NCBI GenBank assembly: GCA_944388805.1
Contig: CALXKE010000001.1
Span: 48,090 to 112,089 of the forward strand
Direction: 5' to 3'
DNA length: 64,000 nt
Origin: an uncultured Clostridia bacterium
GTDB lineage: Bacteria > Bacillota > Clostridia > TANB77 > CAG-508
In this document: positions 57,219 to 57,616 of the stretch, piece by piece
Numbering within the stretch: the stretch's first letter is position 1
Layout: each line of letters begins with the position of its first letter
The notes under the pieces: model-generated
What the model was told of the DNA's origin: nothing
The model's input: only the letters and a program-made list of their open reading frames with translations
Databases searched by the model: none
Position numbers and translations under genes: made by a program

Positions 57219-57246
57219 TTGAAATGTTAAAAAAATAGTATATAAT
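57219..57246 (+). promoter_or_regulatory. promoter TTGAAA-N16-TATAAT of the small-peptide transcription unit
   Basis: ttgaaa at 57219-24, tataat at 57241-46. Confidence 0.55.
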
Positions 57247-57309
57247 AGAAACCATAGGAAAGAGAAAAACAGATGTGGTTTGCCTCCTACATAATGGGAG
57301 GTGATGCAT

Positions 57310-57432
57310 ATGATAGAAATAGAAACTTTATTATTGATTATAAAATTACTATTTGCTGGTCTAGTATCAGTAACTATCATTACATTTACCTTAATTATAG
57401 CAATCGTTGTAATTATGAGTAAACAAAAATAA
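57310..57432 (+). CDS. 40-aa hydrophobic peptide with basic C-terminus; candidate type I toxin (Fst/Ldr-like)
   Basis: MIEIETLLLIIKLLFAGLVSVTIITFTLIIAIVVIMSKQK; SD gggagg 8 nt before the ATG. The upstream cctcc (57285-89) can pair with the SD. Confidence 0.5.
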   Translation: MIEIETLLLIIKLLFAGLVSVTIITFTLIIAIVVIMSKQK

Positions 57433-57435
57433 AAT

Positions 57436-57525
57436 ACCAAAAAACACACATCTGTATTTTGCCCGAATGCGATGTGTGTTTTAAACACTTAACGAGGCAA
57501 ACCACATAGTGGTTTCTCCTTCCTA
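57436..57525 (-). ncRNA. candidate antisense sRNA (type I antitoxin-like), about 90 nt
   Basis: Minus-strand promoter TTGACT-N16-TGaTATAAT (-35 at 57555-60, -10 at 57533-38). The transcript overlaps the peptide mRNA 3' end and terminator. Its 5' region GGAGAAACCAC is complementary to mRNA 5'-UTR GUGGUUUGCCUCC (7+4 bp). Confidence 0.4.
57441..57485. terminator. bidirectional rho-independent terminator shared by the peptide mRNA and the convergent antisense transcript
   Basis: aacacacatc-tgtattttgcccgaatgc-gatgtgtgtt; U-tract on the minus side (ttttttggtattttattttt) stronger than on the plus side (ttttaaac). Confidence 0.65.
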
Positions 57526-57616
57526 TACAAATATTATATCATAAAAATAATAAAAGTCAATAAACTTAGATAATCTTGAAAATGGTTAAAAGTTCAAAAC
57601 AAAGGAGCAAAGATAC

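Follow-up and report, generated by a model that had tools for sequence, protein, structure and literature searches.

A scattered chromosomal module of Clostridia that resembles a type I toxin-antitoxin system, with covarying pairings in its predicted RNAs

The intergenic region between a U32 peptidase gene (54607-57069, minus strand) and polC (from 57617) of an uncultured Clostridia bacterium probably contains one copy of a chromosomal, horizontally scattered module of the type I toxin-antitoxin (TA) kind. Positions refer to the window, that is the whole 64,000-nucleotide stretch of DNA that was analysed. The module, unnamed until now, seems to represent a new family of type I TA systems, in which control is exerted by RNA. 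Its elements are present and conserved at the level of sequence, and covariation is found in the terminator, in a hairpin over the Shine-Dalgarno (SD) sequence, in a long-range pairing within the mRNA and in an inverted repeat. On this basis we infer two transcripts, a toxic peptide and a small RNA (sRNA) that neutralises it, as well as which RNA conformation would be translated.

We propose that a weak sigma-A promoter drives an mRNA of ~230 nt, whose product, a membrane peptide of 40 aa with a single helix, would be the toxin. This mRNA would be silenced by a local hairpin, in which an upstream arm, X, base-pairs with SD, spacer and the first two start-codon bases. A convergent and far stronger promoter would give an sRNA of ~93 nt ending at the same bidirectional terminator and, since the terminator is shared, the ~50 nt at the sRNA 3' end would be perfectly complementary to the mRNA 3' end. 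Contact between the two RNAs probably begins at the hypervariable terminator loops, which would make recognition copy-specific, and pairing may then lead to decay, to a locked SD hairpin or to both. The family would add a second layer of its own: a 5' UTR segment upstream of and overlapping X complements the 5' arm and loop of the terminator, which is also the target of the sRNA, so that the two pairings would be mutually exclusive. The lower stem, which covers the start codon, would likewise face competition from this 5'-3' pairing. The predicted elements are the following.

57213-57218, plus strand: GTTCGC motif, directly before the sense -35, where family conservation begins on the left
57219-57246, plus strand: sense promoter TTGAAA-N16-TATAAT, 11/12 consensus matches; predicted transcription start site (TSS) ~57254
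~57254 to ~57484, plus strand: predicted toxin-like mRNA, ~230 nt
57254-57267, plus strand: purine-rich 5' leader AUAGGAAAGAGAAA, outer part of the inverted repeat common to the sRNA 5' end
57265-57277, plus strand: 5' UTR segment A, AAAAACAGAUGUG, complementary to 5' arm and loop of the terminator in the same mRNA (57447-57459)
57273-57289, plus strand: anti-SD arm X, AUGUGGUUUGCCUCCUA, pairing with 57295-57311 in the minimum free energy (MFE) structure; CCTCC at 57283-57287
57295-57312, plus strand: SD arm S, UGGGAGGUGAUGCAUAUG, with the SD GGGAGG (57296-57301), the spacer and the start codon (57310-57312)
57310-57432, plus strand: ORF of the 40-aa hydrophobic peptide, MIEIETLLLIIKLLFAGLVSVTIITFTLIIAIVVIMSKQK; stop codon counted in the coordinates
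57369-57380, plus strand: ORF-internal AGUAACUAUCAU, near-invariant in nucleotides, complementary to the start region AUGAUAG
57441-57482, both strands: bidirectional intrinsic terminator, 12-bp stem (57441-52/57471-82) and 18-nt loop
57494-57526, minus strand: sRNA 5' domain, leader plus hairpin (Z arm GGAGAAACCAC, loop UAU, Y arm GUGGUUUGCCUC)
57433-57526, minus strand: predicted antisense sRNA, candidate antitoxin, ~92-95 nt, bounded by promoter and terminator
57533-57560, minus strand: antisense promoter TTGACT (57560-55)-N16-TGaTATAAT (57538-33), 11/12 matches with extended -10

An earlier note on this DNA had read the locus as a par/Fst-like type I system placed between the U32 peptidase gene and polC. 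The site is as described and the type I TA-like, convergent layout holds, while membership of the Fst family and pairing through direct repeats are not supported. The further copies that the note advised looking for are numerous. The peptide has 22 protein homologues, and a scan with an exact pattern retrieved at least 120 genome stretches, of which at least 115 are family loci in at least 102 species-level assemblies; the 64-kb window itself holds one module only (nhmmer). A profile search of 1.84 billion representatives yielded 96 peptide clusters at 50% identity, and a metagenome scan anchored on the SD region and the ORF only added 59 further loci. Among the matches listed, all carriers were uncultured Clostridia/Bacillota MAGs, and 108 modules occupied 93 distinct flank contexts. 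The carriers came from the gut of humans, goat, rabbit and chicken, and neighbours of the module include the housekeeping genes spo0A, ruvA and topA. Tandem arrays (two peptide subtypes), partial or decayed copies and several copies per genome were all encountered. The locus is stably kept between the U32 gene and polC in relatives of 87-97% identity, an adjacency that is not kept in more distant ones; MAG BRZ_SP__bin58 (CALXLP) is 96.6% identical to the window. Conservation across 108 aligned modules begins at TGTTCGCT(T/A)G and its limits coincide exactly with the two -35 elements, the antisense promoter forming the right edge, which gives a module of ~340 bp. The complete set of both promoters, SD hairpin, ORF of 38-43 aa, terminator and sRNA hairpin is retained in more than 100 homologous modules.

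As the earlier note had supposed, no annotated family covers the locus. Rfam 15 returned noise at the gathering threshold and at E <= 10 (Thr_leader, E = 0.23), the Rfam BsrG model reached a sub-threshold 10 bits (E = 7.8), and no family of Pfam-A, NCBIfam, PADLOC or PHROGs matched; 'hypothetical protein' is the sole name that any source gives to family members. Many type I TA systems reside on plasmids and phages. BLAST searches of plasmids and phages and a scan of viral contigs produced only a 39-nt AT-rich chance match, and this absence counts against the type I TA reading.

The hydrophobic ORF with its SKQK tail was correctly predicted from the window, and substitution patterns indicate that it is under coding constraint throughout the family. 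Variability is lowest at codon position 2 (entropy 0.36, against 0.76 and 0.68 at the other two), and the pN/pS of 0.59 for the reading frame compares with 0.72 and 1.10 for the alternative frames. In the 110 parsed modules the ATG lies 8 nt past GGAGG in 109 cases and 9 nt in one, the ORF measures 38-43 aa in 107, and it is inactivated in four. The window peptide has a GRAVY of 1.86, with 19-aa windows reaching 2.89, and its C-terminal tail consists of the four residues SKQK only. Kinship with Fst/Ldr/TxpA-type toxins, which had been suggested for it, found no backing: the peptide matched nothing in Pfam or NCBIfam at E <= 10, and proline, tryptophan and the PxxxG motif each occur in 0 of 107 family peptides. 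The near-invariant AGUAACUAUCAU pairs with the AUG in 50 of 103 MFE structures. In 38 of the 110 parsed modules an upstream AUG lies in a different frame from the ORF, and the UTR element therefore works at the RNA level. Gene callers either missed the ORF or prolonged it through the 5' UTR; the N-termini MWFASYKEVRR... of database entries are translated anti-SD hairpins, a lesson for annotation.

The proposed pairing of GGGAGG with CCUCC was upheld. The 5' UTR folds into a hairpin of 10+5 bp that hides the SD together with the first two start-codon bases, with an MFE of -17.7 kcal/mol (z = -3.97; 0 of 200 shuffles equal). SD:anti-SD pairing is present in the MFE structure of 106 of 108 modules, a sample retrieved by a pattern that forces both the anti-SD and the SD sequence, which makes its SD-hairpin statistics circular; independent evidence on the hairpin comes only from the protein-derived loci and from the metagenome loci anchored on the SD region and the ORF. 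The pairing was recovered in seven of eight divergent UTRs, six of them unselected on anti-SD/SD and the seventh being that of the window, and members unselected on these sequences covary from CCUCC:GGAGG to CCACC:GGUGG.

The 5' UTR is also complementary to the terminator of its own mRNA. In the window, segment A matches the terminator 5' arm and loop at 12 of 13 positions, and across 19 terminator classes the pairing spans 9-16 bp. With hand-curated segments, cognate combinations scored -14.8 vs -12.8 kcal/mol for non-cognate ones, a difference equalled by 3 of 20000 permutations. A fully automatic segmentation was equalled by 475 of 5000 permutations; it mis-segmented several terminators, for which reason the curated segments were used. 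On the curated segments the long-range pairing is covarying. The first ~19 nt of the mRNA are unpaired in the MFE structure of the 5' UTR alone and almost wholly unpaired in the terminated mRNA. They become paired only upon read-through of the terminator into the inverted-repeat partner, where a panhandle is predicted in 59 of 67 modules. The predicted accessibility of the SD is low in each modelled conformation, rising from 0.04 to 0.11 in the read-through RNA, and this weighs against the type I TA reading.

Both predicted promoters keep their place and their hexamers in 104 of 108 modules. The sense promoter, found where the earlier note had placed it, is the weaker one (mean score 9.2 of 12.5 across the family). 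The antisense promoter with its extended -10 was confirmed and is near consensus family-wide: its mean score is 11.8 of 12.5, it outscores its sense counterpart in 93 of 104 modules, and TATAAT is found in 99 and TTGACA or TTGACT in 94 of these 104. The short convergent mRNA expected by the note was retained at a predicted ~230 rather than ~200 nt, and its estimate of ~90 nt for the antisense RNA agrees with the 92-95 nt that we predict from promoter and terminator. The terminator stem is perfect as claimed, at 12 bp instead of 10 (z = -5.78 in the window); it is 98.9% paired over 101 sequences, with AU to GC compensatory changes at two pairs, and in the 108-module profile no part of the module varies more than the terminator loop. 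The better U-tract was rightly assigned to the antisense side, with TTTTTT vs TTTT in the window and 8.4 vs 5.5 T per 10 nt as family means.

The predicted sRNA folds with z = -2.77. The upper 4 bp of its hairpin are invariant apart from a compensatory switch to CGCA:UGCG in the L137 subfamily; RNAalifold on the gappy alignment of 105 sRNA sequences gave a poor consensus and was replaced by explicit pair counting. The cofolding of sRNA and mRNA that had been advised gave a 54-bp duplex with the mRNA 3' end (ddG -54.5 kcal/mol for the full-length cofold), which dominates the interaction, while the 5' contact postulated by the note contributed a gain of about -1 to -2 kcal/mol. In two variants, L152 and L064, the ORF is intact and the sRNA 5' region and its -10 are lost. 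This fits poorly with a toxin held in check by the sRNA alone, except where the mRNA is inactive by default or other copies give protection.

A 33-nt inverted repeat (57254-86/57494-526, 82% complementary) begins at both predicted TSSs, and its right arm is the sRNA 5' domain. It contains the exact inverted copy of ATGTGGTTTGCCTC, which had been reported one position off, at 57495-08, and lies at 57494-57507. In 21 module classes the repeat covaries: cognate arms gave -48.0 vs -37.1 kcal/mol for non-cognate arms, with 0 of 20000 permutations equal. As the strong repeat is inverted, the two predicted RNAs share same-sense 5' ends of ~34 nt and not complementary ones. The earlier note had invoked a direct-repeat layout as in par, but the conserved repeat is the inverted one; the degenerate direct copy does lie at 57507-20, with only 8 of 14 positions matching. 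In the window and in the main family this copy permits a pairing of 7+4 bp between the sRNA 5' arm and the anti-SD arm, and such a pairing would hit the anti-SD arm and not the SD and start codon as par DRa/DRb do. The heterodimer between the sRNA 5' end and the region flanking the SD, which the note had proposed, is weak (duplex z only -1.3, with the small cofold gain given above) and is lost in the divergent subfamilies L132 and L137, and we rejected it as a family feature. A role of the Y arm as a trans-acting anti-SD was likewise discarded: its duplex reaches only -8.9 vs -6.75 kcal/mol for shuffled sequences in the main family, and in other subfamilies Y mostly ends before the anti-SD core. 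Common Y variants do, however, turn G.U into Watson-Crick pairs in a duplex of this kind.

The shared 5' ends also allow a more elaborate scheme, which we regard as doubtful, in which the 5' UTR would be a permuted mimic of the sRNA and both would compete for the 3' region of the toxin transcript. The order of leader, terminator-complementary segment and X in the mRNA would then correspond to leader, terminator 3' arm and Y in the sRNA. The 5' UTR would pair with the nascent terminator 5' arm in the role of an antiterminator; the U-tract on the sense side is of low quality and effectively missing from about one third of the copies. The read-through transcript would zip its 5' ~34 nt onto the inverted-repeat partner, and the resulting panhandle would draw the anti-SD arm away from the SD and license translation. 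The sRNA, perfectly complementary to the entire 3' extension, would displace the panhandle, returning the anti-SD to the SD and marking the RNA for RNase III. The type I antitoxin would then be an allosteric repressor of translation, binding at the 3' end and removing an activator helix that acts in cis. The very limited gain in SD accessibility on read-through makes this a minority reading.

Three other explanations of the locus were weighed against a TA-like module. The peptide might be a non-toxic small membrane protein whose gene is under cis-antisense and SD-hairpin control, the antisense RNA merely tuning its level. The clearly coding, membrane-like ORF, its preservation in the sRNA-less variants L152 and L064 and the stable inheritance at U32-polC in relatives of 87-97% identity are all compatible with such a gene. 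The distribution is less so, with 93 neighbourhoods for 108 copies, multicopy genomes, tandem arrays, partial copies and some dead ORFs; a pattern so scattered, multicopy and decaying is the behaviour of a selfish TA module and not of a housekeeping subunit. The absence of a conserved partner gene points the same way, as does a repression that would be layered and extreme, with a 15-bp hairpin over SD and start and an antisense promoter that is the stronger one in 93 of 104 modules. We therefore consider a benign peptide unlikely. Another possibility, a leader peptide with a terminator/antiterminator attenuator governing the downstream gene, polC in the window, would account for a short ORF followed by a terminator, for a 5' segment able to act as antiterminator, for the weak sense-side U-tract and for polC lying downstream in the same orientation. 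It was rejected on the diversity and orientation of the downstream genes, which are unrelated between sites and co-oriented in 44 of 70 cases but convergent in 26; moreover every copy has a strong inward-facing promoter between the terminator and the downstream gene, and we give this explanation almost no credence.

It is also very improbable that the module is a miniature mobile or repeat element, with terminal inverted repeats of ~35-70 bp serving DNA transposition or recombination and with incidental ORF and RNAs. Inverted repeats do flank a ~340-bp unit at many unrelated sites, the module HMM weakly matches the opposite end in reverse (E = 1.6e-4), and flips of the terminator loop suggest recombination between the inverted arms. 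An incidental ORF, however, would hardly keep its length, frame and hydrophobicity under coding-type constraint, nor would both promoters retain functional hexamers and spacing. The centres of the two arms differ consistently, and so do their covariation partners: the terminator 5' arm for the segment in the mRNA arm, its own hairpin for the segment in the sRNA arm. By reading, the two edges of the window module bear no obvious target-site duplication, and viral contigs, phages and plasmids are without matches.

If the type I TA-like reading holds, the module would add a widespread family to the type I TA systems of Clostridia, present in no fewer than 102 species-level genomes and comprising 96 clusters of peptides (50% identity). 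It would represent a compact natural RNA device of ~340 bp with unusually rich comparative support for its structures, and the hypervariable terminator loop could yield orthogonal toxin/antitoxin pairs. Its combination of a par layout with a hok/aapA-like long-range interaction offers a testable case in which antisense binding at the 3' end would be relayed to the ribosome-binding site.

In layout the module resembles par of pAD1, with RNA I/Fst and RNA II, from a family found in Enterococcus and other Firmicutes (PMC7472228). Both have, by prediction in the case of the module, convergent promoters, a toxin mRNA of ~230 nt, a short sRNA and a common bidirectional terminator, complementary terminator stem-loops as the RNA-RNA contact, an intramolecular 5' stem-loop sequestering the SD and a small hydrophobic peptide, and core chromosomes are among their locations (PMC7472228). 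Fst, in contrast, carries PXXXG(C), a conserved Trp, a charged C-tail and the Pfam Fst_toxin domain, whereas the module peptide is without these and has a basic tail of four residues. In par the direct repeats DRa/DRb sequester SD and start codon, and the module has no such second complementary region; instead its inverted repeat gives both predicted RNAs the same ~34-nt 5' end and its 5' UTR-terminator pairing covaries. The sRNA is also longer, ~93 nt as predicted here vs ~40 nt for RNA II (PMC7472228). Toxin mRNAs of the par family have their outermost 5' end enclosed in an upstream helix (PMC7472228); in the module the first ~19 nt would be paired on read-through only.

The Bacillus subtilis systems bsrG/SR4 and txpA/RatA likewise have a convergent antitoxin overlapping the toxin mRNA 3' end, and first contact through the sRNA terminator loop, which we propose for the module, is a feature of bsrG/SR4 (PMC3834814). 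There, binding at the 3' end lengthens the SD-sequestering helix from 4 to 8 bp (PMC3834814); in the module, displacement of the 5' UTR from the terminator arm would re-form the lower 5-bp stem over the AUG. The module shows no sequence relationship to bsrG, has an overlap confined to the terminator (~50 nt) and no prophage association, and its coupling would follow from the predicted pairings. With hok/Sok and aapA/IsoA it has in common a covarying 5'-3' long-distance interaction, local SD-sequestering hairpins and multicopy modules specific to their own antisense RNA (PMC6733600). In hok/aapA the anti-SD itself is the 3' partner, the full-length RNA becomes active only once its 3' end is trimmed, and antisense binding takes place in the 5' region (PMC6733600), whereas the module has a local anti-SD 5' of the SD and a long-range partner, the terminator 5' arm and loop, that is itself the antisense target.

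Among Clostridia, the CD2517.1-RCd8 and CD0956.2-RCd10 modules of Clostridioides difficile are comparable to what is predicted here in their convergent overlapping genes, in previously unannotated toxins with an N-terminal TM segment and in the efficacy of the cognate antitoxin only (PMC6563280). Their toxins have 34-53 aa and lysine-rich C-tails and their loci lie in prophages or beside CRISPR arrays (PMC6563280), while the present module encodes a four-residue tail, lies between housekeeping genes and is without phage or CRISPR association. Within Clostridia, C. difficile is the only organism for which the review of these systems describes type I modules with experimental validation (PMC6563280).

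We read the window over positions 56900-57900 and scanned the same region for consensus promoters. The features that the earlier note had described at this locus, as a par/Fst-like type I toxin-antitoxin module upstream of polC, were borne out, and the two best promoter-like sites of the region point toward each other. The following elements were delineated:

57219-46, plus strand: sense promoter TTGAAA-N16-TATAAT (consensus scan)
57254-86 and 57494-526: inverted repeat of 33 nt (82%), both arms starting at predicted transcription start sites
57265-77 and 57447-59: second complementarity, 5' UTR versus terminator 5' arm and loop
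57273-89 and 57295-311, plus strand: SD hairpin of the 5' UTR, AUGUGGUUUGCCUCCUA with UGGGAGGUGA..CAUAU (MFE fold)
57310-57432, plus strand: ORF of 40 codons
57441-52 and 57471-82: terminator hairpin with a perfect 12-bp stem (z = -5.78)
57526 to about 57433, minus strand: predicted antisense RNA (sRNA), 5' hairpin and terminator fold (z = -2.77)
57560-33, minus strand: antisense promoter TTGACT-N16-TGaTATAAT (consensus scan)

In the window the SD hairpin hides the SD along with the AU of the AUG start (MFE -17.7 kcal/mol, z = -3.97). With an A-run on one side and a T-run on the other, the terminator hairpin could act on both strands. The 14-nt repeat reported earlier exists but is only the core of the 33-nt inverted repeat. 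Because each predicted transcription start site coincides with the start of one arm, both RNAs would share their opening sequence (AUAGGAA.GAGAAA...AUGUGGUUUGCCUC) rather than being complementary to each other there. The neighbouring polC (57617-62438) consists of two ORFs, one of 1368 aa with aberrant last ~30 residues (57617-61723) and one of 235 aa corresponding to the PolC C-terminus (61731-62438). The split looks like a frameshift near 61.6-61.7 kb, which may reflect misassembly or a genuine disruption. Rfam matches at the gathering threshold in the 64-kb window were limited to four tRNA genes (26981-27137, 33407-33478, 46622-46693).

The peptide had no match in Pfam, NCBIfam, PADLOC or PHROGs, nor the module DNA in Rfam, plasmids, phages or viral contigs. 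A protein search retrieved 22 homologues, whose contigs carry the whole module, including both promoters, in unrelated neighbourhoods. When one genome per species was scanned with an exact pattern, at least 120 stretches matched, at least 115 of them family loci, in at least 102 assemblies; among the matches listed, every carrier is a MAG of an uncultured member of the Clostridia or Bacillota from the gut of a human, goat, rabbit or chicken, and two or three loci occur in 12 assemblies. A profile search of 1.84 billion representatives yielded 96 clusters at 50% identity, and "hypothetical protein" was the sole name given to any family member by any source. In an alignment of 108 unique modules, conservation spans from the sense -35, with GTTCGC just upstream, to the antisense -35, and 93 different (left, right) flank contexts were found, with housekeeping neighbours such as spo0A, ruvA, topA and hsp33. 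The placement between the U32 peptidase gene and polC is kept in close relatives of the window organism (nucleotide identity 96.6% at locus L101, 93% at L048 and 87-95% at L030), so the module is stable in vertical descent among near relatives and patchy at greater distances. GTTCGC, which abuts the sense -35 on its upstream side (window 57213-57218), is kept in the main family and missing in subfamilies with the sense promoter TTGACT-N17-TATAAT; it may be a regulator site or an UP-like element.

The antisense promoter scored higher than the sense promoter in 93/104 modules, with a -10 TATAAT in 99 and a -35 TTGACA or TTGACT in 94 of these 104. The U-tract is also better on the antisense side (8.4 versus 5.5 T in 10 nt), and on the sense side the T-run is never longer than 3 in 33/102 modules. 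Pairing in the terminator stem reaches 98.9%, and at two pairs both bases have changed together from A-U to G-C; nowhere is the module more variable than in the terminator loop. L001 (5300-8100) has a tandem array of four modules in which two peptide subtypes occur in alternation (IIKLLFAGLVSVTII and IATIYILYYSLIGVTII). Copies 1 and 2 of this array have terminator loops that are exact reverse complements of each other (AACTCGCCAAAGTT / AACTTTGGCGAGTT), as would result if recombination between the stem arms had flipped the loop. L140 and L179 are near-identical modules up to the stop codon, past which the terminator, sRNA and antisense promoter of L140 are replaced by unrelated, more GC-rich DNA, possibly an insertion. 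L152 (about 3865-4200) and L064 (about 930-1180) have lost the sRNA 5' region and its -10 by deletion or replacement but retain an intact peptide ORF and 5' UTR and all or part of the terminator; these are putative toxin genes without a cognate antisense promoter.

The ORF is 38-43 aa long in 107/110 modules. In four of the 110 it is disrupted, by loss of the start or stop codon, a premature stop or a frameshift, and the copy without a start codon, L014, yielded no ORF call. Variability is lowest at codon position 2 (entropy 0.36 versus 0.76 and 0.68), and pN/pS is 0.59 in frame versus 0.72 and 1.10 in the other frames, a pattern that marks a hydrophobic coding sequence. The peptides have a GRAVY of 1.86 and a short basic tail; among 107, an acidic residue occupies position 3 in 105, and none contains Pro, Trp or PxxxG. 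An upstream AUG in the UTR element is out of frame in 38/110 modules, which means that the constraint on this element acts on the RNA, and the N-terminal extension MWFASYKEVRR of many called homologues is the translated anti-SD/SD hairpin. In P0007-P0022 and most family entries of protein collections, the ORF was called from the in-frame ATG of the anti-SD arm, and the true 39-40 aa peptides are therefore mostly absent from protein databases. In L135, L136 and peptides P0050, P0063, P0096 and P0107 the stop codon is lost and the ORF runs into the terminator 5' arm, where AAA ACA CAT CTG TAA adds a conserved C-terminal ...KTHL. Within the ORF, AGTAACTATCAT (window 57369-57380) hardly varies in its nucleotides, even at wobble positions. 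It shows complementarity to the start region (ATGATAG / ATGGTAG) and pairs with the AUG in roughly half of the predicted MFEs.

The SD hairpin was found in 106/108 MFEs, in a sample retrieved with a pattern forcing CCTCC and GGAGG. Independent members, obtained through the profile search or through a metagenome scan that used no anchor other than the SD region and ORF, keep the hairpin with loops of 3 to about 60 nt and show covariation from CCUCC:GGAGG to CCACC:GGUGG. In L009 (2800-2960), L025 and L076, GAGAATA and AGCAGATG of the 5' leader are separated by an insertion of ~65 nt with its own hairpin (TATAACGCT...AGCGTTATA), and nhmmer scores the promoter and leader thus set apart as a partial match of their own. 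The main family never varies in the upper 4 bp of the sRNA 5' hairpin, which in the L137 subfamily have become CGCA:UGCG through compensatory changes; lower down, A:U pairs are frequently disrupted with no compensating change. The inverted repeat, comprising the promoter-proximal leader and the X/Y element (X, anti-SD arm of the mRNA; Y, arm of the sRNA 5' hairpin), co-varies across 21 classes (-48.0 versus -37.1 kcal/mol; 0/20000 permutations as good).

The 5' UTR segment directly upstream of and overlapping the anti-SD arm is complementary to the terminator 5' arm and the 5' part of the loop of its own mRNA. This complementarity (9-16 bp, 19 classes) is kept in every subfamily though both sides change, as in L137 (AAAGUAGAUGUGUUCG : CGGCACAUUUGCUUU), with a cognate mean of -14.8 versus -12.8 kcal/mol for non-cognate pairs (3/20000 permutations as good; 475/5000 in an automatic, poorly segmented version). 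It reaches into the loop on the mRNA's side only and is therefore intramolecular, and it overlies the site of perfect sRNA complementarity.

In the full-length cofold, a 54-bp duplex of the sRNA with the mRNA 3' end dominates (ddG -54.5 kcal/mol) and is the sole intermolecular contact certain from the sequence of the two predicted RNAs. In the window the sRNA 5' arm could also contact the anti-SD arm (7+4 bp), as proposed earlier, but this second contact is thermodynamically marginal and not conserved. We therefore favour the predicted sRNA as a candidate antitoxin acting by 3' overlap. On the model of par and of the bsrG antitoxin SR4 (PMC7472228, PMC3834814), it would first touch its target at the terminator loops. 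Its binding and the 5'UTR-terminator pairing would be mutually exclusive, and that pairing would compete with the lower stem concealing the AUG. Since the sRNA would exclude this competitor, the SD/start hairpin is expected to tighten on binding, paralleling SR4, which lengthens the SD helix of bsrG mRNA from 4 to 8 bp (PMC3834814).

Weak U-tracts on the sense side, the inverted repeat and a panhandle in 59/67 MFEs of hypothetical read-through RNAs suggest a bolder reading, which casts the 5' UTR as a mimic of the sRNA and as its competitor for a read-through 3' extension. We consider it doubtful, because predicted SD accessibility rises only about three-fold in the read-through form. That the ORF encodes a benign membrane peptide is unlikely, and a MITE-like repeat would be a very improbable explanation. 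An attenuator controlling polC was given hardly any credence and excluded, as the downstream genes are diverse in kind and orientation. We regard the locus as most likely a type I toxin-antitoxin-like module, with a putatively toxic peptide and two predicted transcripts.

The C. difficile systems, according to PMC6563280 the only experimentally validated type I modules in Clostridia, are unrelated to this family in both sequence and context. As in hok and aapA mRNAs, a 5'-3' interaction co-varies, but the pairing partners and the antisense target are different (PMC6733600). The family shares with par (pAD1 RNA I/Fst and RNA II) the convergent promoters, the common terminator and the 5' SD stem-loop, but it lacks the toxin motifs and the direct repeats DRa/DRb of par.
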